A model generated the notes under the pieces. It had not been told where the DNA came from, searched no databases, and saw nothing but the letters and a program-made list of their open reading frames with translations. A DNA stretch of 60,357 nucleotides, the filler included, from Squatina squatina (Eukaryota): the NCBI GenBank assembly GCA_031763465.1. It is 3 parts of 3 records of this genome, joined end to end, with 100 filler letters (N's around TTAATTAATTAA, not from the genome) between each part and the next. Parts side by side here need not be neighbours in the genome. Positions count along the whole stretch, not along the records: positions 1 to 30,416 come from JARFOE010000057.1; 2 more parts are not named here. The stretch is one strand, 5' to 3'. Positions 5,910 through 52,860 of this stretch are shown here, one piece after another; within the stretch, counting starts at the first letter, position 1, and every line of letters starts with the position of its first letter. Made by a program: the position numbers and the translations under genes.

Positions 5910-6197
5910 NNNNNNNNNNNNNNNNNNNNNNNNNNNNNNNNNNNNNNNNNNNNNNNNNNNNNNNNNNNNNNNNNNNNNNNNNNNNNNNNNNNNNNNNNNN
6001 NNNNNNNNNGCTGTGATCTGAATGCCCAGCTGTGAAGGAGGAAACCCGCAAGCTCGGGTGGAACGAGGACTGCCAGGTAAGTTCGCAGACATTTTTGCGA
6101 TCGGAGGCATCTGCACACAGGAAGCCTCCGATTGCAATTTCAGGGCCAATATTTGCTTTTTAGACAATAAAAATATTTGAAGCCCTTACTAGCTATT

Positions 6198-6368
6198 GGG
6201 GTAGATTTTCATCTGCACTGCCTGGGCAGTGGATTTCCTGCTCTTTTAGATCCTGCCTGATTTTCTTCCATGAATTTTAATGGAATGAAAATTGGATGGG
6301 TTTTATAAAGGATGAGTGATCTGCTCTGCCAGATCAGTGCCCAAACGGTGAAGATGAAAATCTACCAC
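6198..6368. mobile_element. MITE, about 170 bp
   Basis: TIR GGGGTAGATTTTCATCT / AGATGAAAATCTACCAC (16 of 17 match) with a central palindrome ttccatgaattttaatggaa. Confidence 0.75.
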
Positions 6369-9300
6369 AATTTGTCTACCCCATAAGATACAGAAGTAAG
6401 CAAAAAGCATGGGCATCCACTGTAAAAAAAAAGGTTTTTGTGGTGTGATTTCTTTTTAGAGAAATCTCCAAAATCAGAGATAGCCATCCCATGTCTCTTG
6501 GATTGGCCTACATGTATGCAATGGATGCCTCACTAAAGACTCTGGGGAAAAAAAACAATATACGGACAGAACTGATATTTTGAAAGCTGTAGTGCACTTT
6601 CTGAAACATAAGGGTTAACATGAAAGGAACAGAACAGTAAACAGCACAGGACTGACTCACAAAGTATGTCAGCAGCTCCTCCGCAAACGAAAATCAAATT
6701 TTGCTCTGGCAGTTCAAGCAGTCAAGTGCTTGACTCTAATCCAAACAGTCTTGAGTTGAAGACTCAGGCTAATCTGTGCTAATCTTGATTGCTTCAGCCA
6801 GGTAAATCTCAACATTCCCCAATATGCTTGCTAGGTAAAGCACTACTGCAAGGTGCTCAATCACGAGGGTGAAAGAGAGAGGGAGTCAAGATTGCCTGGC
6901 TTACCCTCTGCCTGAATCAGGCCTCTTGCCTGCTAATCAAAGAACAGCATTTAGTTTAGTCATGGGAACCATGTTATTCTCCCAGCTGAGAGTAAGGACC
7001 CTGCCAAGAGAAAAATGGAGGGAAAGAAACAGAACCAAGGGGAAAAGGAAAGAGAATGATATCTGGCTTTACTGCGGGGTAACAAAATAGGAATGCAAAT
7101 GAATCCTTAAAATATTGACTTCTCATAATAGTCTCAGGCTGCTTGCTCTTGTCAGGCATATATTACTATTTATTTTAATAAAGTGAAACCAAGTTCCCAA
7201 GCCTATTTATTTACAAATATATATAAATATTCATAAATTCAAATACATCCATGCTTCTCACTTTCTTCNNNNNNNNNNNNNNNNNNNNNNNNNNNNNNNN
7301 NNNNNNNNNNNNNNNNNNNNNNNNNNNNNNNNNNNNNNNNNNNNNNNNNNNNNNNNNNNNNNNNNNNNNNNNNNNNNNNNNNNNNNNNNNNNNNNNNNNN
7401 NNNNNNNNNNNNNNNNNNNNNNNNNNNNNNNNNNNNNNNNNNNNNNNNNNNNNNNNNNNNNNNNNNNNNNNNNNNNNNNNNNNNNNNNNNNNNNNNNNNN
7501 NNNNNNNNNNNNNNNNNNNNNNNNNNNNNNNNNNNNNNNNNNNNNNNNNNNNNNNNNNNNNATCAGAGAAGAGAGCTTCATCGTTTCTGTTGAATTTGAA
7601 CCCAAGTTCTTCAGGTGAAACAGCAGAGTAGAAATGCAGTTTGCCTCTGGCTTTCTAGTTTTTCACGTTTGGGCAGATACCAATTTTCAGAGCTGAAAAG
7701 TCAGTATTTAATCACACTGGACCACCCAGCTTAACGGTTATCAGCTTGATGCAGGGTAATTTTTACAATTGTCTGCAAGTTCTTATTTTCAAATCATTTG
7801 GGCTATATCTAAGGAATATGATCAGATTATTTTTTAGGGGCCAGCCATTTGGTATTGGTGCAAAATTGGCAGCTGGCAGCTGGCAGCTGTGGAGCTTTGA
7901 TTTGGGCAGTTTGCTTAGTCCTAGACATGTGGTGATAGCTGGCATTGTTACCCTGTAATTTGGTCACTTTCCAAGCTACATGGGAAGACATTCCTTGTGC
8001 ATGGAGAGTGAAACCAGCAGTGCTCAAAGCTGCTCCAGCTATTAAACAACAGTAAGCAATTAAGTCTATACTCCTGTCTGCTAATCAGATGGACTCCAGG
8101 TATTATAAGAAAGCATGGATTGAGAAGCAGAGCCAATACTAGGAAGTATCTAACCTAACAACTAAAGAGAACAAAATGAAATTGAAAGTATAGCAATTGA
8201 AAAAGGGAACTTAACATTGTCTAGACATCAAATAAAGAAGAAAGGGTTGTAGGAATGGTGTTTGAATAAAAATGTCTGATCAAAGCTCTACACATTTTCA
8301 GTGCAAGTGAGGAAGCTGCTCACCTCTACACGATGTGCTAAAATGTTTATGTGTGTCTGTTTGCAAGTTAGTGGCAACTTATTAAAGGAATTTTAAATTA
8401 ATAAAAAATGGTCTTGTGTTTTGAAATTCCATGATATTGATCAAGTTTCAGTGCACCACTATAAAAATGAAATGTCCTATAAATAACTTGAGTTTGTTAT
8501 TTTAGATATTGGAATTTTTGTGAATGAAGGTTGATATTTTTCAGCAAGTGCTTGTTTAAAAACAGCAGCCCACCAGTGCTGAGCACAATGCTGTCAATTA
8601 AGCAAGGCTAGATCCCCTGTTCCTCAGTCACAGAGTGCCATGTAGTTGGCATAACAGTGATTGACAGCACTGGCGGTTGCTTGATAAACATAAAGCACGT
8701 GTGCCAAACATGGATTTCAGATGCAAAAATGGATCAACTAGCATCAATGAAAGAATCAATGAATATTCACTATCTTCTTGTTATGAAGTTAATATTAAAA
8801 GAATGTACTAAATATCCAGTAAGATTAAGGATTATTATTAAAATGTAATCAGTAAGCAGGAACTGTTTTCTTCAGTAAAACTTTCTCCTTGGTAATTTGG
8901 TTTTCTGAGACTTCTGTTATATTTTGGACATATTTCCCTGACAAATATTGCTGCGTAACCTTTCTTATTTTTCTCCCTTCTTTCCTGAAAGCTCTGACTC
9001 TCATTGGGAAATGGCTCCATAGGTGCTCGAAGCCCTCCGTATCTCACCCAAGTACCCATTCTTTACACGTCAGTCTAGATAGTGTGTGTCACCAGACTAC
9101 TTGACAAGTGGATCTGACAACAGCCAAGACCAATTCTGTTCTGTCCTGATCTGAAGTCCATAGCTGTGTATTGCAATCTGGACAATTTTGTTTCCCCCTC
9201 CCCATCCAGCGACTTAAGAGGTCAATTATACTCTCCCTAACGATACTTTGACAGAGATCAGACAACTCAAAATAGATCGGGGATATTGCTTTCAACCATT

Positions 9301-10014
9301 AGTATGACAGCAGGCAGTGCTTCTGCTGCTGAGCCATCTGGTGAGCATTTACAAAAAGTACGATATTTTCCCTCCAATTCTTATCATGAAGTTCTTCACG
9401 TATCCTCTATCTACTGAAAGTGGTAAGACTCCAGGCTATCCACTTGATTGATTGATTGATGTAACTGTGATGGGTGAGAGCCATGGATTATTGATGTACT
9501 TAATTTTTTTTTACGTATCAGTGAGGAATGCCAAAGGAAATCAAGTAAGATAGTATGAAACTCATGTTATAAATAAAAGACCAACGATCATAGCTAGATT
9601 AAACTGTAGATAACTAACTGGTATGGAGTGTTTAACTGGGGTTTTCTTAATCGAATTGATGAATAACACATTGGTGACCAGTAAAATGAGATGGCCGAAA
9701 CAGAACCAAGCAATACATGTCTTGACAATTTTCACATGGAATGAATGACATCCTGCTATGTAAAGGGATGCATTTAGAAATTAGTACAGGTTCAGTATTC
9801 ATGCATAGTGGGCAGAATCCAAATGCCATCTTATGAAAGGTTAGAGCAATTGATTATAGCACTTCTCTGTTGCCCATTTCCCTAAATTTAGTCCTGGATT
9901 TTATTATTGACATATTCCTAAATCTAAAATTGTTTTACTTTTGCAGTCTCTGCAACTATACTTTTCTAACATTTATATATTTTCCCATGCACTTTAAATG
10001 TTTAACTGAACCTG

Positions 10015-16368: not shown

Positions 16369-17006
16369 AAAACATTGCACCCCTATGAGGTTGTCAATAT
16401 TCAAACCAGACAAAGTGCATGCATTGTACAACCACAGCATGTTTCTCATGTGTTTCAATGGTAACCTTTAGCAATTTTTCAACATTTTGATATTGAGTTA
16501 ATTTTAATGATGGCTTAAAAGTTTCTTGTTTTTCCCTTGTGTAATATTGCAGCTGCCATCAATAACACACACACACACACACGCATAGGGATAAATCTGT
16601 ATATTTCTAAGGAATGCATTTTCTTGAAAGGATTTATGTCAATGACATGTTTCATTAAAAGTAATTATAACTATCTGCTGACAGCTTCCAATTCCTTTCC
16701 AAATGATTCATTTAATCCTCAGTTAAAACATAGAAAACAAATTCCTAGGGACAAGCAGAATTTATAGGAAGTGATACGACATCCTCAGTAGCTTCCAGGA
16801 AGGTTGTGCAGCAGTTTGCAGAGACAGCTATTTCCAGATGTCATAAGCTGACTTTAGTCCTTGGGAGACAGACTTTTCCGATTTTCATTTGCACGTGCTA
16901 TATCAGNNNNNNNNNNNNNNNNNNNNNNNNNNNNNNNNNNNNNNNNNNNNNNNNNNNNNNNNNNNNNNNNNNNNNNNNNNNNNNNNNNNNNNNNNNNNNN
17001 NNNNNN

Positions 17007-18470
17007 GGAGTGAACCCACCGCTGGGACAGTGTGTTGGTACACATCACACTGGCATACCCACCCATTTCGATATGTTGACAACATTCCAGGTCTGGGGCC
17101 ACCCATGCTCAATTTCGGTCAAACAACCATTGAGGGTGGTCCCTGAATTCCTTGAAGATGTACCCTCATTAGAATGTTCAATGTGCTCCTATGGACTCTA
17201 CCTTGTACAACCAGGCAGGAGGAATTGCGATGTTGGTGATGATTGGGACTGCTAAAATCACTGGGATCTGATCATCCCCGCTCTGGGAGTGAGCCCGAGT
17301 TGTGAAAAAGGCTAGGCCATGCTACTTTATAGTCTTCTTCTGTCTAACTGGCAAGTAGCCAAGTGGTGATTCTTGACAAATGTGGGGACATGGTTAGATC
17401 GAGGTCAGATAGTCCCTTCTGTAGTAGGGTAAGTTACAAAATTCCCATAGATGCTACTTGGAGATGGTCTGTTGGACATATTCTTGATTATTAACCCCAA
17501 CAATTTCATTAAATTTATTGAGATAGATTGCATGGCCGCCACTATTTCCTGGGTGGATAGCAAGGAGTTATCGTGCTCATGGATTAAGTTTGGTCAATAA
17601 TCCCTTCAGTTGCCTTTGCATGACTTTGTTGTGCTCCCATATTTTTTCTACATCTATTCGATTCTTACCAGCCATGCCTGCTGCAGCTCCTATTCCCACC
17701 CACTCCACCTGTTGGTGTCAGGCCTTTACCCTTCTTCTTCATCTGAGTTAGGGCTTTCCTATTTTTTCTCTGGTTTCTGTGAGTCCTCTACAAACTCCTT
17801 CAACATGAGGCAGAACAAATCGAGGTAATTATCTTGGCATTCCCAATCAGCAGGTGTAAAAAGGTCAAACTAAAAATGATTGAGACAATCTCAAAGTGCA
17901 CATCATTGTACAATACCGCTCTTGAGTCAGTCACTTCCAACCCATACTTCTGTGGAATAGGGAATATCATAGGGCGCGGAGGGCCGAGGCTACTGGTGAC
18001 ATCTATACCTGGTTTCTTGGTAGTTTCTAATTTTACGTGCAAGGTGCTATATCCCTCTTGGTTTGGCTCACAACGGACATTACCACTGAGGCAAATTTAA
18101 CGTTTGAGACTACACTAGGCCATGCTTCCCATCAGGTTGTCGGAACAAGTTCCTCTTTCTAAGGAATTTCAAAATCTCCTATGGGAGGGGCAAACATGCT
18201 AAGTTGGTCTTGAAACCACTCTCACCTTCCGCCATTCCATTTCCTTTACAAATACATTTTACCCGTACTCCCTTCCCTTCTTCCACATACATGCCAGTAA
18301 TTCAATTCCTGTTCAATAATTCTTCGCATCTGCGGTTCCACCATCGACTCAGTCATTCTTCAACTTCTTTTGTCCTTTCTTCTCTGGTCTGATTATATCT
18401 GTATTGTTCATCTAGAGGGTTATGTTGGCACCAATCCTTAAACACTACTGAGCAGCTTTCCTGGAGCATA
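17007..18470 (-). pseudogene. Degraded envelope / class I viral fusion glycoprotein-like ORF (endogenous retroelement relic)
   Basis: Stitched by hand across stops and frameshifts: IFPIPQKYGLEVTDSRAVLYNDVHFEIVSIIF; basic cluster RRRVK; Gly/Ala-rich WVGIGAAAGMAG; heptad-like NRIDVEKIWEHNKVMQRQLKGLLTKL; LLQKGLSDL/NHVPTFV; IPVILAVPII...LYKVESIG; APDLECCQH..WVCQC. Confidence 0.6.
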
Positions 18471-18838
18471 CTGCCCACAATATAATAATTGATACATTTT
18501 CAGGTCCTTTAAGAGTTCACCAGCCCATTGAAATCAAGCACAGTTGCACAGTATATGGCTACCAGTTTTGCCATTGACTTAGTTTGCAAAAGACTTCAAT
18601 TGATTGATGTACCATTTGCTGACCTTATTAGCCCATCCATTTAGGCTCAAATACATGTTCCTTTTTACCATAATTTTGTATCATTACCACATTTCCAATC
18701 TCATATTTGGCTGGTTTCACCTTTTTATTGAAATACTTCTTAATCTGCTGTTTAGATTTGCCAATATTCCTGGCTACGAAACAGTTCATTTTGTTGACTT
18801 ACTCCACCATCTGTTCCAACCATTTTTGCCCTACCAGT

Positions 18839-19301
18839 GCCAGCTGTGGCTCAGTGGGTAGCACTCTCGCCTCTGAGACAGAAGGTTGTGGGTTCAAGTC
18901 CCACTCCAGAGACTTGAGCACATGAATCTAGGTTGACACGCCAGTGCAATACGAAAGGAGTGCTGCACTGTCAGAGGTGCTGTCTTTCAGATGAGGCGTT
19001 AAACTGAGGCCTCGTCTACCCTCTCAGGTGGATGTAAAAGGTCCTATGGCACTATTTTGAAGAAGAGCAGGGGAGTTATACCCCGATGCCCCGGCCAAGA
19101 TTTATCCCTCAGTCAACATAACAAAAACATTATCTGGTCACTATCACATTGCTGTTTGTGGGAGCTTGCTGTGCGCAACTTGGCTGCTGCGTTTCCCACA
19201 TTACAACAGTGCCTGCACTCTAAAAGTACTCCATTGGCTGTAAGGTGCTTTGGGATGACCTGAGGTCATGAAGGGAGGTGTATAAATGTAAGTTCCTTCT
19301 T
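18839..19301 (+). mobile_element. Full-length tRNA-derived DeuSINE (SacSINE1-like)
   Basis: A box TGGCTCAGTGGG, B box GGTTCAAGTCC, central Deu-like domain (gtggatgtaaaaggtcctatggcactatttt), L2-like tail tataaatgtaagtt. Confidence 0.88.
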
Positions 19302-19854
19302 GTCCATGTAAAGCACAGAAAATCTTGAACAACACATTCTCTCTTCAACAGTCTGAAGCAATAATAATATGCATTAACTTGATAAAGCTTCCCAGCATGC
19401 CTTCTGATTTTGGTTACGTTTAACAGTTCTGTGTTCTTTCCTTTTTTGTTAACCAAATTCTGCTCTTTTACCAAGTAATTTAAGGTTTCTAATCCATCCC
19501 TTTAGTTTTCTTTAAAAAGCCGGTATTGAAAATCCATATTGAAAAGTCCAAAATCATTCACCATCCATTTGGGAAAATGCCACCATTCATTGTAAGTTAC
19601 AAGTCAAACAGGAGTAGAGTGTGTCCTCAGTAAGATGTGCCCATCTAATTGATCCATAGGTACTGCAGTAGTCAGTAAGATGAATGCTGCACTCTGGACA
19701 GATGGACGTTACTGGGTTCAAGCTAAACGTCAGATGGACTGCAACTGGAAGCTCAACCAATGGGAACGTGAGTCTTAACAGCAATGAGAGATTTAACCAT
19801 CTAATTTTAATGGCCTGCCTTCATTTTTCTAAAATAAAATATTATTTTTCCTAG

Positions 19855-19932
19855 CGACGATTGTAGACTGGATTTTGAATCAAACAAGCGAGGGAGAAAC
19901 AGTCGCTGCTGACCCCTTTGTGTTTTCTGTTG
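19855..19932 (+). CDS. XPNPEP2: Xaa-Pro aminopeptidase 2, internal exon (78 nt, phase 1-1)
   Basis: Acceptor ttatttttcctag and donor gtaagg. Encodes TIVDWILNQTSEGETVAADPFVFSV, resembling the XPNPEP2 segment PIVTWLLTEIPAGGRVGFDPFLLSI. Lies upstream of a second, clearer XPNPEP2 exon. Confidence 0.8.
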
Positions 19933-20299
19933 GTAAGGAAACAGTACTCATAAGCATTTTCTGTTCTATTTACTCTGTGCATCATCACCATGTTTAAATC
20001 AAGACTCACTGCAATCTCCAACTCTAACTCATTTTTTCCAAGGACCTCCAACCAGAGCAATTCCTTATTACCCTCAGTCTCGTCTTCCTCCTCTAATCGT
20101 CAAGATTTTAGAACCCAAGATTGGGTGGTAAATACATTTTCCTGCCTTTGCTCATTTTAGTCAACGGCTGGGAGNNNNNNNNNNNNNNNNNNNNNNNNNN
20201 NNNNNNNNNNNNNNNNNNNNNNNNNNNNNNNNNNNNNNNNNNNNNNNNNNNNNNNNNNNNNNNNNNNNNNNNNNTCTGAGCTTGGGTATAGGGAGTACA

Positions 20300-20745
20300 A
20301 TTTTGAAGTTTGTGGAAAATACAAAATTTGGCAAAATAGTAAACAGTGAGGTGGAAAATAGCAGCCTTCAGGAGGACATGGAGAAGCTGGTGAAATGAGC
20401 AGACATGTCACGGCAGATACAATTTAAGGGTAAGTGTGAAGTGATGTACTTTAGGACAAACAACATGGAGAGGCAGTATAATCTAACTGGTACAATTTTG
20501 AGGGGTGTGTAAGAGCAAAGGGACCTGGGTGTATATATTCACAAATCTTTGAAGGTGGCAGGGCAAGATGATAAGGTGGTAAGGAAAGTATATAGGATAC
20601 TTGGATTTGTAAATAGGGGCATTGAATACAAAAACAGGGAAATCATGCTAAACCTTTACAAATCACTGGTTAGGGCTCAGCTGGAGTACTGTGTTCATTT
20701 CTGGGCACCAAACTTTAGGAAGAACGTGAAGGCTTTATGGAGGTA
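20300..20745 (+). mobile_element. CR1 ORF2 (RT C-terminal) fragment
   Basis: DLGVYIHKSLKVAGQ...RGIEYKNREIMLNLYKSLVRAQLEYCVHFWAPNFRK. Confidence 0.9.
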
Positions 20746-21623
20746 AATATCTGTTGAGGTCTCCGTGTAAGATGCGGTAGTCAGGATGGCAAATTAGTGC
20801 CAGAAAAAATTAAACACAAAATCTTTCTACAAACTGAATCCACGAGGGATAGTTCGACCTAACCTCCTGGTAACCTTGACTAATATTGTTATCGGATATG
20901 ATGGAATTTCTTTCCATACCTTTAACTCATCTGGTGGGCTGGGGGGAGGTGTGAAAGAATTCATTTTTAAAACTGCAGTTGTCAAATCTGTTTCAGGTCG
21001 ATTTGATTTGAAGTCATGCTTTGTTCATTTTAGGAAAAAAATGTTTTTTTTTTAATGAATTTGTATCATATTAGATTTTCTGCTCGAATTTTATTTCAGA
21101 TTAATTTTTGTTTAAAAATGTGGACCAAGGACAAAATTTAAGCCTGGAAAGTCCTGTTTGTACTATTAAGATACTAACTTTTGACACATTTATATGACAT
21201 TCGTTGGTCCGCTATTTTAACAGAGCTGCTAATTTATTTAAAATAAATGAGTGAACAACTCCATTAAAATAGTGGCAAAGGAATTTCATATAAACATTAA
21301 GTGTTTGTATACCATTATTTGGAGAGCCTTATTACAAATATTAATACTCATATCTCATCCCCTCAATACTTACCCACTCAAAATTTTACCTGATGATAAA
21401 GAAAGCATCTTAATTTTTTTTTTAATTCCATGCAAAGCCAGGTCTCTTTTTTCATTAAATGCCTAAATTCTGAACAAACCCTTCTTCAGTAACTGAATTG
21501 TTGCAGGTTGACAACATTTCTGTNNNNNNNNNNNNNNNNNNNNNNNNNNNNNNNNNNNNNNNNNNNNNNNNNNNNNNNNNNNNNNNNNNNNNNNNNNNNN
21601 NNNNNNNNNNNNNNNNNNNNNNN

Positions 21624-21984: not shown

Positions 21985-22094
21985 GTGCGTGATGCAGTCG
22001 CTGTCATACGATATCTTGTATGGCTGGAAAACAACGTTCCAAAAGGAACAGTGACTGAACTCTCAGGTGCACATTATGTAAACAAGTTACGCAG
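21985..22094 (+). CDS. XPNPEP2: Xaa-Pro aminopeptidase 2, internal exon (110 nt), start of the M24 catalytic domain
   Basis: Acceptor tttttcag and donor gtataa. Encodes VRDAVAVIRYLVWLENNVPKGTVTELSGAHYVNKLR, close to mammalian VRDAVAVIRYLVWLEKNVPKGTVDEFSGA. Adjacent to SASH3. Confidence 0.93.
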
Positions 22095-24980
22095 GTATAA
22101 ATCCTATAGGAAGTTTACATGAAAACACATGATGTGTGCGCTGGCTGATGCTCAGTTCTGATGATAGTGGATTTAATTAAAACACAATTTACCAACATTC
22201 TGCATCACAAAGGCAATATGTTCAAAACTAAACGTATTGTATCAAATTATTAACCTCCACTCTCCAAATATATTAAATATTTCCTCATTGTATTATGAAA
22301 TATAGTATTAAACTCCCAGAAGAATTTGGAATATAGGCCTTGTAAATGATAAACACACTCATATGAAATTATTTTTTTAATGTATTTTAAAATGAACAAA
22401 TTAACACCTTAGTTAAAATTGTGAGTAAGAAATATCAGACACCCAAAATTAAGCAGTTATATATTAATATTCATACAGTGTGATTTCAANNNNNNNNNNT
22501 AACCTCTGTAGAGGCATCCTCAACCTAAGTCTTCTGAGGAGGACCCCATGAACTATTTTAAGAGTAATATCTTAGAATTTTCTCACCTTTTCCTTTCTTC
22601 AAGTTTTCACTGAATTCTGATTACTTTCGAATGTTTCAGTTTACTCAGTTCCGCCTTTACCATTTATAGCAAAATTCCAGTGTCAAGTTGGACAGAAATC
22701 CTTGTTTATGTCTTTTAAAGGGTCTTGTACTTATTCAAATTGTCATAGAGTCCTAAACCTTGTAATATTACCAGTGCTGCACAGTTCTCACTGTTGTCTC
22801 TTGTATGCTTTAGAATTGCTTACCAGTGGCAGCTATATAATTCATATCAGCTTTCAGTCCAGAGGAGGGGCCTACACAGAGCACCTTACTTTGTGTCAAC
22901 TGTTTTGATGTTCAAGTCCACTGCAAAGTACCAGACTTACTCATCGCCAATTGCTTAATCCAGGACCTTACATGAGGGACTTTGGCAAAGAGGCGTGCCG
23001 TTCTTTAGCTGACTCCTCTTAAAGGGTACTCAGTGACAGCTGAGTGTAGGCCACGGCCCTCCATCCTGGCAACTGTTATCCATTTTGCCACGGATTAATA
23101 TCACAGCTTGATCCTGCATCTCACACCTGAGATTGACAAAGCTCCTCCAATGCTGGAGTTCTAAATTATGAAGAACTGCTTGACACATGTCTTCACTGAC
23201 ATTATGAAGGGGATACACGGGCCAAATCTAACTGCAACAAGAAGTTGCCTTTACCTTGTATTGCGATTGCGAGAGNNNNNNNNNNNNNNNNNNNNNNNNN
23301 NNNNNNNNNNNNNNNNNNNNNNNNNNNNNNNNNNNNNNNNNNNNNNNNNNNNNNNNNNNNNNNNNNNNNNNNNNNATTCGTCAGACATGATTTACCTTTC
23401 ATAAATCGGGGTTGGTTTCATGGAATCGTTAGGTTGGATTAACTGGCTATACACCTCATTGCTGTTTATGGCATTGAAGCTGGTGGCTAAAAAAGTCAGA
23501 TGCACAACATTAGCTAGAAAAGGATCCTGAAAATCAGGTTAAAAAAAACAAGCAAGCAATATTAATTGAGAAATGACTTCATATTTAGGCAATCTTCTTA
23601 CTGGGCCCATTAAAGTCACAGCTGTACATAGTTCAGCACCTAGCAAGTAGGGCTGCCCAATATTTATGGGTGTGCTATATCTCAGTGTCATGCATTCTTG
23701 AACTCCAGAAAATGACATGCAAGATGTAATGACATCATGCTCCACCCCAAATTTTATTACAATTAAGCTCCCTAACCCTATTTTTCATTGGCAGAAATGT
23801 ACGTAATGTGCAAAGCGGGAGTAGACCCAACATAATGGATCTACACACATTTTTCCAATCTAGTTCCACCAATTCACACCTGTTTGTCAAGTGAACCCCT
23901 CAGAAAATCTACCTAGTGTTAATGTGTTTATACACTCCTGGCCCAGTTCCCTACGCTTTCACTTTTAGATCAGTTACAGCATCCACTGCCATTTGCAATG
24001 ACGTTAGTTATCCCACCATTTTTCACTTGTAAAAAATTCTTCAAAACACAGAAATGACTAATTCAATTCTACAAAAAGCAATCGTATTCTAAAAGGTGAG
24101 TTATAGCTCTCCACCAGGCTATTGCTTAGCACAGGACTCCGGCTAAAAAAAATGATGCAACCCCCATGACACCACTTCAGTTTCTTGTCACACTTTCTCA
24201 CAGGACTGAACACTAGACAGCAGCAACACTACATAGGAGGAATCAGATCTATACAAACCTGCAAACAATACCACAGAAGATGCACAAGTACAGCTGAATT
24301 ATTAGAATCTGCAGCGATTGAAATAATTTGGTGCGAAAGTGAACAACATTGTAACAGGATTTATTACTGTTTGTTGGGTTTTGCAGATCTATTGTAATGG
24401 GGTTGTGGCACTGATAATAGTGCAGCTGTGACCCATATCAATGCAGGAGATAATCAGCATTAGCACACACACAGCTTTTACTGGTTAAAGATCTTCACGA
24501 GCAACAGGAGAGCTTTGTGGCTTGGTTTGGTTTTTTGCTGCACTAACTCCTATGCGAAGAGCCGTACCACTTCGACCCCAGGCAGTTGTTTTTGATTTTT
24601 ATCTATCATGAGAGAAGGGTTTCCTGGCATAAAGACTACAAGGTAGAAATTATTGTCGATGGTGCTATCTTACAAGCTCATTGTGCTTGTACCAAAATAC
24701 CTTGGGCGGCCAATTCGATAATTACCGCCTCTGGTAAGCGTCATTAAAACGGCGTTCGACCCCAAACGCCGTTTTTTGCCAGTAACTGCCATGCTGAGCA
24801 ATTCGTCAGGGCCTAGAATAGTGTACAAAATGGCGCTAAGCTCAGCGTACGGCACTAGGTGGTGTCCATGACGTCATCAGNNNNNNNNNNNNNNNNNNNN
24901 NNNNNNNNNNNNNNNNNNNNNNNNNNNNNNNNNNNNNNNNNNNNNNNNNNNNNNNNNNNNNNNNNNNNNNNNNNNNNNNN

Positions 24981-25969: not shown

Positions 25970-26026
25970 ATGTTACGAAGAAAACCTTCCAATGCATCAG
26001 AAAAGGAGCAAAATCGAAAACCAAAG
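25970..26026 (+). CDS. SASH3: SAM and SH3 domain-containing protein 3, first coding exon
   Basis: ATG to donor gtaggg; encodes MLRRKPSNASEKEQNRKPK, matching the SASH3 N-terminus MLRRKPSNASEKE. Confidence 0.92.
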
Positions 26027-45712: not shown

Positions 45713-47835
45713 AATTCTGGCAGTCTAAGGAAATACTTGCCTATTGTGGACTTAATCGACTAGTTATTTGCAGTGATGTATGTTTTGTGAGGCAGTATAT
45801 TTCATTGCCAGTCACATCACCATTACTGTAACCTGTTCAGTCATGAGAGTATTGAAACAACACTCCCCATTGGACCAGACCTCCTTTCTGGTTTGTCTCC
45901 CATAATAGTATTTTCTTTATAATAAAAAAAAGAGTACATTTAATCAAGTTTTATTGAAAATGACAATCTAAATCAAACCCTTTGTGGAAGCTTTACAGAC
46001 TACCTGGTGCTCCTGGAACACCATATTACATTGTCCATTTACCATCTGAACTTTTCAAGATCTGCTGTAAGTTTTTAGTGCCTTTTTAAACATGCCAAAC
46101 TTCAGTTCCCCCTCCGACCAAAGATCTTCAGTAAAATAGATGTAAAGAATGAGGAACTGTTCTCCAGCTACTCTTTTGAAATCCTCTCTGTACTTTTTAA
46201 AAGCAAGAATATTAATTAAGACAATTTAGCAATATAACAATGTCAAATTTGAAAGTCAGATTGGGGAAATGGAGGGTGAAGAGACTCATGAGAATATGAA
46301 TTCATTTTCTGGCCAGATTAAGAATGTGGTATTTGAAATAGACCCTTCACTTTTTTCCCCCGCTTCATCTGTGATAAAGTGGAAGCATAATTGATGGTGT
46401 GATTTTTAAAAAAAATCAAGTTGAGAATGGAGCTTGTTCTGTGAAGGCTGGTGATCAAAGTATATTTACATGGGAAATGCACATCTCTAGTTAAATGTAT
46501 AAACTTCAAAATGTTTAAGCATTTATAGGTTTTTGTTCAATACTATTGTAAACAATGAGTGTTGAATATAACCGAGCATTGGATATATTTTTTATTTCAA
46601 AAGGCAACTGATTGTTTCAGGAGCAGAATTAAAAATAGGGCACAAAATGCCTCATTTTCTCTATCATAAGTGTGGCTTTTATGAAATTTATTTTCATTTT
46701 GGGGATTTACTGTTTCCTTTTTACTGAAAGAAGTAATTGGTTTTTCTGAGCACTGAGTAGACTAAATGACAGCACTAAATGAGGAGCTAATGATTTATTC
46801 TGTACACTTGTGATGTAATGGAGTTTGGTAATCTATCATTTATCTACACTGGAAAATATTGTCTATTCTGACTAACTAGAAATTTTATATTGATTTATAT
46901 GGATAATTCTTGGAATCAGTTCCTTGGTTAATTTTAAAGCCTGCATCAACTTTCTTGTACATGATTTTAGATTTCATTTTTCTAAACAATAAAGTACATT
47001 TGGCATTTTGATGTATTGCATTTATGAAAAACACATGTTTTTGAAATCCAATTATGCATCCCCCACACTCTCCATTAATACATGAATATTTTGTGAAATC
47101 ATTGAGTACAAATTGGTGCTAGGTAGAATGTATTCAAGGTGAAGTTGACTGTTTACTTATTAAAAAGTCAACTGCATTTGTGCTGGCCAGTTGATAGCAT
47201 GGACTCGCTCTCAAATAGCAGTCATTTTTAATGACCATCTCTACCCTCCCCACATTGAGAATTGGATCACTGTTACTGACTCAAAGTGAACAGCAACTTT
47301 AGTCTGAAGAGTAAATCAATGAAGGCCAATTCCAGCTAGNNNNNNNNNNNNNNNNNNNNNNNNNNNNNNNNNNNNNNNNNNNNNNNNNNNNNNNNNNNNN
47401 NNNNNNNNNNNNNNNNNNNNNNNNNNNNNNNNNNNNNNNTGTCACAATAGAGACTACATTTCAAAAGCTGGTAAAGTGCTTTGGAATGTTTGAAAGGCGC
47501 TATGTAAATGCAAGTTCTGTATTTTTTTTCTACCTTTTCGCAGTGACGAGGGAGAGGCTGGATTTTGGTAAGAAAAATGAGGACTCTTCAATCCAATTGG
47601 ATGTGTTGGAGGGAGATTTACACTATTCTTAATGGAATATTGAGTAGGCACATTCAAATAGGGACAATATTAGGATATGTGTTCATGAAAATTAAAGTAA
47701 AGGCAAAATAGATGCTGGAACTGGAAGAAAAGGCTTCAAACCTTTCCTCTTCTACGTCACCCATGACTCAAACTATAAAAATACACTAATGCTTTTAGCT
47801 TTGTTTTTAAAAAAAGTTTGTTACATAAATTTTAC

Positions 47836-48605
47836 CTCATAAGTTGCTCCAATGGATTATTTTCACAAATATAAAGGACCTCATGTCTTTCACAGTGGAA
47901 GGTGTTGATAATCCTTTCAATGAGTTGCCCGGCTATAATTGTTTTGCCAGTTCCAGGAAGACCATGCACAAAGAGTTTTTTGCATTTCTCAATATTGTGT
48001 TTTGAATGAAGAATCTGAAATTGCTTCAGTGTTAGCAGATTGAGAAACTCACAGCCAAGTTGGTCACTTAGGAAGGATCTGAAACCTAGTAGAACAATAG
48101 TGAGCGCCCTCAGCAATGCTCTGATGTGAATGTCTTTTAAGTCAGTATAAGCGGGTGGGTACTGAACTTGTAACTTGCTCACAGACCCCTGCACATTGCC
48201 AAATCCCAACATAGATGCATTGCCATCTTCGTCTGACACACTGTCTATATACAGGATTGCTGAGATTACACAGAGTTTTCCTGCATAGCCACCTGGATTC
48301 ACCAGTTTTTGTTTGATGGAAAATGCTGTGGCTTTTGAATAACTGGTCACTCCCTCATTTTTCTGTCTGACGATGGTGTACAATAGTGGCGCACTCTTTG
48401 TGGCCACTAGGAGAGCATCACATATTACATCCAGGTTCTTTGGCAGGCCAATGTCAACAGCCCAGCTTCTGGAGAAAATCAGAATTCCTCGACTTCCTGC
48501 CAGTTTCATTGTAGGCAGCAGATTCCACAGAGCCGGATAATCTTCTAACAGTTCTTTATGCAAGTTCTCTGGTATTATACGGATTCCACTGGAGGAAGTA
48601 AATTC
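47836..48605 (-). CDS. Schlafen family, long helicase-containing type (SLFN5/11/13-like); large internal exon truncated by a gap at its 5' end
   Basis: Uninterrupted ORF with SRSWAVDIGL (SWAVDL motif), KQKLVNPGGYAGKLCV, FRSFLSDQLGCEFLNLLT, Walker A GLPGTGKT and LYICENNPL. Ends at AG|gtaaa donor. Confidence 0.92.
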
Positions 48606-49136: not shown

Positions 49137-49305
49137 AACAATGCCAGGGTGGCAGTATTAGGTGCATCAGGTGGCATTGGGCAGCCTCTTTCTCTGCTGC
49201 TGAAGAACAGCCCTCTTGTGAGTGAGCTATCCCTGTATGATATCGCGCACACACCCGGTGTTGCAGCTGATCTCAGCCACATTGAGACCAGGGCAAAGGT
49301 TGTTG
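49137..49305 (+). CDS. MDH2: Mitochondrial malate dehydrogenase, exon 2
   Basis: Acceptor ttgcacag, donor gtgagt. Encodes [56 protein letters not shown] (Rossmann GASGGIG). Confidence 0.97.
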
Positions 49306-49665
49306 GTGAGTAAAAGTTTAAAGGTATGATGTATTTACTGCTGCCGAAGTGCTTATAATATGTATGTATTAATACCAAACTGCTTAATAGTCCAAGGCAG
49401 TACTTGTCTGAGGCTAATCCATAGTCTGATTGACCTCAGCAAAACATTTCACAACGGATGAATATTCTGAGGGAAAGTCTCTATAGTGGTTTACCTCAGA
49501 ATCAGACTGTCTAGAGCTTTGTTTGTCAGATTGTCTTAGCCAGATAGTCATGGGTTCAAGTCCCACNNNNNNNNNNNNNNNNNNNNNNNNNNNNNNNNNN
49601 NNNNNNNNNNNNNNNNNNNNNNNNNNNNNNNNNNNNNNNNNNNNNNNNNNNNNNNNNNNNNNNNN

Positions 49666-51305: not shown

Positions 51306-51780
51306 TTGAGGGCAGTGGGGTTTCACGCAGCATATCACGTGAACCAACTTTGTGTCCGCAGCAGTGCTGAGCTCCGTGCTTCAGTCTCAGCCTGAACAAC
51401 TAAGCTTGATGGTGGCTGAAAGTATGTGAGGCACAGTCCAGATGGCAGCATACGGAACAGTACAGGGGAATTGGAGATTTACAGAATCTGCCCAAAATAT
51501 TGTCCCTTCAAGTGACCCAGTATATTACAAATTGAAGCACCCTCACACAAGAGACTTGGAACAGATTTCCTTTAGCATGTGGAATTGCAGTTTTTTATTG
51601 TTGGCCCTTGATTTACAAGGTGCCATTGTTGTGTGTACAGTGCTTTTTTTTCTGCTTTTTGCGTTCCATATTTAACGAAGGGGGGATTTGTTTTTCTGGT
51701 TGTCACCCAGTGCCTGTTAACATGGTGCAGTGCATCATGGATTTTAAGGAGGATTTTTGACTCTTCTGTCCAATATTTAG

Positions 51781-51932
51781 GTTCCGCCACCCTATCCATG
51801 GCTTACGCCGGTGCCAGATTTGTCTTCTCGCTCTTGGATGCTATGAATGGTAAAGAAGGAGTGATGGAATGTGCGTTTGTCAGGTCTGAAGAAACTGAGT
51901 CACCATATTTCTCTACACCGCTGCTTCTCGGG
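51781..51932 (+). CDS. MDH2: MDH2 penultimate exon
   Basis: Acceptor tatttag, donor gtgagt. Encodes (G)[50 protein letters not shown]. Confidence 0.97.
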
Positions 51933-52860
51933 GTGAGTTTGTGTGCTGTTTGGACTGGGCACGTTGTCCAGCTTTTAAATGATCAGCAGAAACCTTTTTT
52001 TTTCTCCCCACTTTTTACAAACTGCAAATGGTCAGCATCTTAAATCAGGCATGTACTTTAAATCTGACTTGTCCTATTTTGCTAGAATTGTTGCCTTTAA
52101 ACTTGAAATAAGAGGTCTACTCGCTGCCTTCTGTTTGTGTATTTCAATCTGCAGTTAGAAGCAAAGCCTACGTTTCCACAGTCAAACTTTGGTTACTGCT
52201 TACTCTTGCCGCAGTCCTATGTGCAATGATTTGNNNNNNNNNNNNNNNNNNNNNNNNNNNNNNNNNNNNNNNNNNNNNNNNNNNNNNNNNNNNNNNNNNN
52301 NNNNNNNNNNNNNNNNNNNNNNNNNNNNNNNNNCAGGAGGCTGCCTTTTGACTTTGTTTAATTTTAAACTTGCAAACTTCTTGCACTCTCCACATCCCCC
52401 AATGAAGACACTGACTCTTGCAGAGGTACAATTCTGCTGTTATCAGGAGCTCACCCAAATGGCCCAGTTTGTGAGCCGAGGTGATTTGACTGGAGGGCAT
52501 CTTGGCCATGTCCAATTCTGCACCCCTATGCCTTGTGTACACATACTTTCTGGCAGAGACCAGGCTAGTAATTGGAATTATGAAACATAATTTTCCTTCG
52601 CCCTCTTCCCCAGGGATGACGAGACCAACTATCGCATCCAGCTGCTGTCTTGGCTGAGATCACAGACCAGGAAATGAACCTGAGACTTTTTGGTCTTTTA
52701 CACCTTAGTGTAGTACGGTGTATCTCCTCACTTGTAAGGTCTCACTGTAGTATTTTTATCAGTTTAAATGCATTGCATCCCTCTAAGCTGTCTGCTGTTC
52801 TTAAAATTAGTTTTCTAATTTTGGTGTATTTCATTAAAAAAATATTGCCTTTTTTTCCAG

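Follow-up and report, generated by a model that had tools for sequence, protein, structure and literature searches.

The analysed window, a stretch of 60,357 nucleotides of Squatina squatina DNA (filler included), carries on its minus strand the decayed remains of a retroviral env gene and a probable integrase tail, with a high-copy repeat directly upstream. The env stretch, the tail and a plus-strand exon of XPNPEP2 lie together on one contig, 17007-20174, and an assembly gap cuts the env gene short (Table 1).

Table 1. Features of the env element and its surroundings, with their positions in the window
Feature	Position	Strand	Basis or remark
Assembly gap, 100 N	16907..17006	.	Remainder of env (HR2, TM) and 3′ LTR would fall here
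Decayed env gene	17014..18472	-	Cut at 17006 by the assembly gap; 306/472 identity, 7 stops, 14 frameshifts
Cys-containing beta-rich ectodomain, 5′ part	17014..17330	-	Alignments
WVCQC	17047-17061	-	Motif check
PDLECCQH	17073-17096	-	Motif check
LYKVESIG	17187-17210	-	Motif check
IPVILAVPII	17238-17267	-	Motif check
HR1-like helices	17460..17660	-	Alignment; heptad role inferred from position
WVGIGAAAGMAG	17667-17702	-	Motif check
Gly/Ala-rich fusion-peptide-like stretch	17667..17705	-	Alignment; best of 7 Envs tested is snakehead retrovirus
Furin-type cleavage site position, decayed	17709..17720	-	Aligns to R-x-[KR]-R, residue 287 of the Scyliorhinus and Heterodontus proteins
RRRVK	17724-17738	-	Motif check
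F2-like strand and helix preceding the cleavage site	17770..17945	-	Alignment; Atlas F-like alignments start at residues 198-203
GLEVTDS...SIIF	17872-17943	-	Motif check
Head domain, probably Ig-like (about residues 85-185 of the intact protein)	18025..18290	-	Sub-threshold Ig matches on intact relatives
NQT	18386-18394	-	Motif check
Probable integrase C-terminal tail, pol 3′ end, 56 codons	18631..18798	-	158 nt upstream of env
High-copy SINE-like repeat, 5′ break of element	18837..19300	.	6 other matches in the window; >80,000 contigs per run
XPNPEP2 exon, residues about 104-140	19660..19767	+	76-79% identity to shark XPNPEP2; AG/GT boundaries; same contig as env
XPNPEP2 second exon, residues about 371-408	21985-22095	+	Homology

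The env homology matches residues 15-540 of an intact 754-aa relative by frameshift-aware alignment, and tblastn with the intact proteins places residues about 16-540 at 18469-17014 and at no other place in the window. A single frame with its stops read as X yields two protein matches among 455 candidates, a 754-aa protein of Scyliorhinus torazame (E 1.5e-49) and a 739-aa protein of Chiloscyllium punctatum (E 3.8e-49). A 754-aa protein of Heterodontus francisci shares a cluster with the S. torazame protein. Frameshift-aware reconstruction of the open reading frame, as proposed by an earlier, sequence-only reading of this DNA, gives 65% identity to the Heterodontus protein (the 306/472 of Table 1) and 62-63% to the other two. 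The alignment scores 1262 over residues 15-540, versus 29-42 for three shuffles of the first 300 residues only. The numbers of stops and frameshifts, about 7 and about 14, do not change at three penalties.

The window copy has 118 substitutions in 354 core positions, 29.7% of them conservative, with the 7 stops counted across the whole alignment; the neutral expectation is 31-33% conservative changes and 0.062 stops per change. Only 5 of the 15 arginines that are invariant in the three intact proteins are retained. The conservative fraction, the stops and the lost arginines together indicate neutral decay from a sequence near the present intact proteins. These comparisons identify the stretch as a retroviral env gene that has decayed neutrally, and the copy itself has no protein function. 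Searches for tRNAs and Rfam families gave no match. The last 214 residues of the intact protein, including the TM helix (about 700-718), are missing; the window env breaks off after residue 540, where it meets the 100-N gap in which the sequence-only reading had placed the lost membrane anchor, and tblastn beyond the gap finds no match past that residue.

The motifs listed in that reading, which had described a broken minus-strand ORF, are all present on the minus strand in the order given, spread over three frames. Its polybasic RRRVK cluster is not the cleavage site, as RRRV is largely an off-frame reading of the acidic spacer that precedes this site. The true site has decayed, its basic residues being lost and a stop being present at that position. 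The intact relatives have R-x-[KR]-R at residue 287, a TM helix at about 700-718, and 19 invariant cysteines, and their layout fits that of F-like fusogens: signal peptide, basic cleavage site, fusion peptide, HR1, Cys-rich ectodomain, HR2, and TM. Ahead of the F-like core they bear an extra N-terminal domain of ~180 residues. Its second half gives Pfam matches that all fall short of the cut-off (Ig_3 E 0.015, Ig_2 0.053, I-set 0.31), Ig matches occur among ESM Atlas structure rows 9-10, and the UniRef label is 'Ig-like'. An AlphaFold2 model of the head has a pLDDT of 39, and Foldseek with that low-confidence model returned nothing at E 0.001. The domain is probably an Ig-like head, and it would be the receptor-binding part.

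Structure-based comparison supports the earlier suggestion of an F-like class I env. Residues 195-690 have a feature score of 0.92 to Baculo_F and Fusion_gly clusters in the ESM Atlas, with 191-198 of 256 features in common. The structure TM values over these residues are 0.54 for Baculo_F, 0.47 for Fusion_gly, and 0.45 for foamy Env, and two unnamed 874-aa chordate clusters reach 0.52. The Fusion_gly and Baculo_F rows attain the Atlas naming bar, and the Heterodontus protein model from which they derive is of low confidence (pLDDT 0.52) and a single source. AlphaFold2 on the three-sequence alignment gives a pLDDT of 28, the alignment being too shallow for a usable fold. The profile half of the same check came back empty: Pfam and PDB sequence searches with the window frames and the intact proteins show no fusogen match above the cut-off.

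Shuffle tests on the ectodomain core covered snakehead retrovirus (SnRV), foamy, lentiviral, and betaretroviral Envs, loki Env not being among them. Against SnRV Env, z is 3.8-5.3 with BLOSUM45 and 1.5-3.6 with BLOSUM62. With BLOSUM45, eight foamy Envs give z of 1.0-7.3, and six control Envs, labelled from genome layout as three lentiviral and three betaretroviral, give -1.4 to 0.9. In profile comparisons the similarity to foamy and SnRV Env falls short of significance, and under an HMM of foamy Env the shark proteins score among shuffles. Foamy Env is itself structurally F-like according to the accessible part of PMC11468914. On these model-based grounds, the intact relatives are predicted, with high confidence, to be F-type class I fusogens.

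The 56 codons upstream of env have no Pfam or PDB match. Compared with the corresponding part of SnRV integrase they reach E 0.13, and against the published Loki-Bsp Pol tail 10 of 28 ungapped positions are identical by eye. A contig of another organism joins 18237-18287 to 18731-18777, 517 letters apart versus 443 in the window. Position and this linkage to env assign the stretch to the element; it is probably an integrase C-terminal tail, an identification that would be weak taken alone. The adjoining repeat is presumably of the SINE class. From the provirus layout LTR-gag-pol-env-LTR, the pol tail and env alone remain in the window. The earlier statement that no gag, pol, or LTR is visible thus stands for gag, RT, and LTRs, and fails for pol by the probable tail. 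No LTR pair or second copy occurs within the window, and tblastn with 49 retroviral Pol and Env ORFs, each 850-1300 aa long, finds no match there. Viral and metagenome contigs, scanned for env and for the pol tail, likewise yielded no relative of either.

The antisense position in XPNPEP2, also proposed from the sequence, is supported by the exon on the same contig. Because the preceding exon is absent from this contig, the element is placed in an intron. In a comparison covering four of 21 runs, contigs of two other organisms span the junction between tail and repeat, with about 9-11% substitutions and many gaps relative to the window, which indicates an old insertion common to related sharks. 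In a second set of four runs, three of them new, the env and tail stretch is matched by 35, 10, 28, and 37 contigs, every run being positive; several different contigs cover the same places, which shows a multi-copy family in those genomes. Several frameshift positions of the window copy are not common to those contigs, as expected from separate decay.

Other features of the window were recorded alongside. Minus-strand ORFs at 19220-20099 were rejected, one being antisense to the XPNPEP2 exon and none having a family match. The stretch 20513-20746 (+) has no Pfam match and presumably resembles the C-terminus of a CR1/LINE reverse transcriptase. The scaffold is very fragmented, with 49 N runs, mostly of 100 N, and only two XPNPEP2 exons; adjacency across gaps is uncertain. 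Exon-like pieces at 25970, 26627, and 27476 (+) belong to an SH3/SAM adaptor (SH3_2 E 0.016), which we take to be SASH3, a neighbour of XPNPEP2 in other vertebrates. A Schlafen-like open frame of 257 codons at 47835-48605 (-) has an SLFN GTPase-like domain (E 1e-43) and a P-loop start. It lies antisense, just 5′ of a malate dehydrogenase exon at 49140; the malate dehydrogenase exons, 49140-49310 and 51720-51941 (+), match Ldh_1_N and Ldh_1_C and are probably from MDH2.

The intact relatives XP_072333160.1, XP_067889054.1, and GCC29952.1 are 739-754 aa long and come from Scyliorhinus, Heterodontus, and Chiloscyllium, that is, from three shark orders. Their pairwise identity is 84.8-87.8%, and the Chiloscyllium-Heterodontus pair is 84.8% identical in env versus 81.7% in XPNPEP2. 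Foamy Envs, by contrast, have a median identity of 50%. Across 142 variable columns the trio has no stops where 8.8 are expected under neutrality, no internal indels, and none of its 19 cysteines lost where 3.8 losses are expected. Its changes are conservative in 44-48% of cases, compared with 45% in XPNPEP2 and 31-33% under neutrality. At the protein level, this pattern demonstrates purifying selection on the trio. Heterodontus has its intact env on a contig of 163.0 Mb and XPNPEP2 on another of 107.9 Mb, and in C. punctatum the two are on different scaffolds. The window copy is therefore a fossil paralogue of the intact gene.

The simplest reading of the trio, and a fairly probable one on the alignments, is a single env gene captured early and kept by host selection. 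The horn, carpet, and ground shark split presumably lies well over 150 My in the past. It is somewhat favoured that galeomorphs have a domesticated, Ig-headed F-type fusogen captured before that split, with the window copy as its dead proviral sibling. The account as a whole, in which a decayed env follows what is probably an integrase tail, the two lying antisense within an intron of XPNPEP2, and its intact relatives are predicted F-type proteins likely to descend from one captured gene, is held to be reasonably probable. The Scyliorhinus, Heterodontus, and Chiloscyllium species with an annotated intact copy are egg layers. No viviparous shark yielded an intact copy, perhaps only for reasons of annotation. 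A published description of the intact gene was not found in titles and opening lines of abstracts, most subscription literature lying outside that search.

The strongest competitor, although unlikely, takes the intact proteins for young copies of an ERV that is still replicating, or did so recently, and spread between shark orders, the selection being viral. The ERV family has several copies per genome, and host jumps are described for lokiretroviruses and for most retroviruses of fish in the accessible parts of PMC7947760 and PMC6001957. Young copies of a conserved virus are conceivable because only three sequences are at hand, because they were found as annotated ORFs, an ascertainment that favours intact frames, and because sharks evolve slowly (PMC10587355, in the portion available). 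Against this, a single contig is recorded for each intact protein, and no fourth relative appears among 8000 candidates; a search with the intact protein returns only itself and the Chiloscyllium protein. Moreover, the old fossil differs from the trio neutrally, which implies that the protein has hardly moved from the time of that insertion on, unlike the Envs of replicating foamy viruses.

For the source lineage, placement on the SnRV side of class III is the leading candidate and an evenly balanced call on present sequence comparisons. The TM subunit of SnRV Env is colinear with that of the shark Env above shuffles. The stretch of the cleavage site and fusion peptide, picked after its likeness to SnRV had been noticed, gives z 4.7 against SnRV (1/300 shuffles), and at most 1.5 against the other six Envs tested, none of them from a lokiretrovirus. 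In the tail, SnRV integrase has the F-x-P-K-W-x-G motif in common with the window, and the upstream part is unmatched. The two Envs are distant, with an hhalign probability of 1%, and the SnRV env frame has 1134 codons from stop to stop versus 739-754 aa in sharks. According to the available text of the respective sources, SnRV-related ERVs occur in Callorhinchus, including CmiERV lineage I (PMC4422223), the hosts of clade Huo span all major vertebrate lineages (PMC6001957), and the ERV RTs of cartilaginous fish are mostly of clade III (10.1101/2023.10.17.562709). By eye the head resembles the N-terminus of SnRV Env, but this likeness was lost under shuffling and is not significant.

SnRV Env (6131-9532, +, in the SnRV record) has no fusogen match in Pfam or PDB, yet it is colinear with the F-like shark Env, and its N-terminus has an Ig-like Cys/Trp pattern by eye. 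It may therefore be an F-type protein too. No paper describing it so was found among titles and abstract openings.

The sequence-only reading had assigned the element to the lokiretroviruses. This alternative, which is rather improbable, would make the element a lokiretrovirus, or a member of a loki sister lineage, with an acquired Ig-like head, and it would be the first loki element of a chondrichthyan. Lokiretroviruses are defined by an RT clade sister to the sampled retroviruses, and the window retains no RT. Its Env is F-like as in lokiretroviruses, which also have, in the entries accessible, a signal peptide, an RXKR-type site, a fusion peptide, a coiled coil, and a TM, and motifs colinear by eye with the loki Env TM subunit can be traced as far as those entries go. 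The integrase tail is more loki- or Gypsy-like than SnRV-like, with nothing found for foamy; of the CGIN1-related integrase of lokiretroviruses, only the 56-residue tail is present for comparison. Such tails are also common in Gypsy elements, which counts against the loki reading. The assignment finds no support in the screen of Wang and Han, where loki RT is recorded in 0/6 chondrichthyan genomes, S. torazame included, in the accessible text of PMC7947760. The loki Envs in the same source (8 of 23 entries, 2 of them partial) are without the ~180-residue head of the shark Env, and their fusion peptide is by eye of another type. The cleavage site lies at about residue 118 in Loki-Bsp, as excerpted there, versus 290 in the shark Env. 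A loki layout defined here from these entries, with a short F2 right after the signal peptide followed by the loki fusion peptide, is by eye not that of the shark Env. An F0-like Env with RXKR is present in the shark protein, and it is common to foamy viruses and SnRV; since foamy Env is F-like and the shark Env aligns with SnRV and foamy Envs above shuffles, such an Env is not diagnostic of lokiretroviruses.

Decidedly doubtful is a third possibility, that the element is a foamy-like ERV of clade Tu or an env-bearing Gypsy element. As separate lineage assignments from sequence, the foamy-like one has little probability and the Gypsy one very little. When 137 retroviral ORFs are compared with the shark profile, the six top scorers are foamy Envs, colinear and with a best E of 0.01, the top shuffle z values are also foamy, and foamy-like ERVs have been published for sharks (PMC5512871, in the part available). 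These are countered by the lack of a PF03408 match, by null results of reverse HMM and hhalign comparisons, by an Env of 754 versus about 990 aa, and by a tail unlike the foamy integrase end (SH3_11). For Gypsy, the top Atlas structure row is Baculo_F, mostly from arthropods; the accessible text of 10.1101/2023.10.26.564294 reports no intact vertebrate element homologous to the invertebrate env-bearing Gypsy elements.

It is very improbable that the window copy is a pseudogenised orthologue or duplicate of a conserved host gene without a separate proviral insertion. The copy does depart from the trio neutrally, as a lost host gene would, and at 30 of 55 two-state sites it agrees with the majority of the trio, but the intact gene lies apart from XPNPEP2 in Heterodontus and C. 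punctatum, and many related copies exist.

Under the favoured account of capture, an ERV family, most likely of class III on the snakehead retrovirus side, would have invaded early sharks. The window copy would have become fixed antisense in the intron, lost gag and most of pol with a SINE at the break, and then decayed. The Env precursor would carry a signal peptide and be cut by furin into a surface part with the Ig-like head and a fusion part. The head would likely grip a receptor, and the fusion part (fusion peptide, HR1, beta-rich domains, HR2, and TM) would fold back so that the membranes merge. Another env copy at a separate locus would have survived intact, its most likely role being that of an antiviral factor that blocks a receptor or of a cell-cell fusogen. 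Captured env genes have these two known roles, receptor interference and cell fusion, according to the available part of PMC6669660.

Earlier publications cover F-like Envs of vertebrate ERVs, shark ERVs of the SnRV-like and foamy-like kinds, and a co-opted F-like (foamy) env in geckos. Taken alone, the fossil adds another dead ERV to those known; its interest lies in the lesson on F-like Envs and in the candidate captured fusogen. An F-like Env in a vertebrate genome is no marker of lokiretroviruses, and the F-like core appears to link the loki, foamy, and snakehead retroviruses with a shark lineage that bears an Ig-like head. The candidate bears on whether sharks, some of which are placental, own syncytin-like or receptor-blocking env genes. 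If the capture is true, the gene would be among the oldest captured env genes and the first in cartilaginous fish. It would also come from a source lineage (SnRV-side or loki-sister) without a known captured env, and the fossil would tie it to a pol-env element.

The predicted fold and layout of the shark Env are common to the F proteins of paramyxo- and pneumoviruses (PF00523) and of baculoviruses and errantiviruses (PF12259), although there is no match at the level of sequence. Unlike paramyxovirus and baculovirus F, the shark Env follows a probable pol tail and bears its own Ig-like head. Foamy Env has the F-like core in common with it and differs in lineage, length, and host class. The closest precedent for a host-kept F-like env is the gecko foamy env ERV-Spuma-Ppi/Gja, for which the accessible text of PMC6669660 gives an age of at least 96 My and a dN/dS of 0.14. 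The captured env genes known as syncytins and percomORF are of gamma type, whereas the shark Env is F-type. In syncytins and percomORF the env ORF stays intact across deep host splits, as it would in the shark trio, a candidate captured gene.
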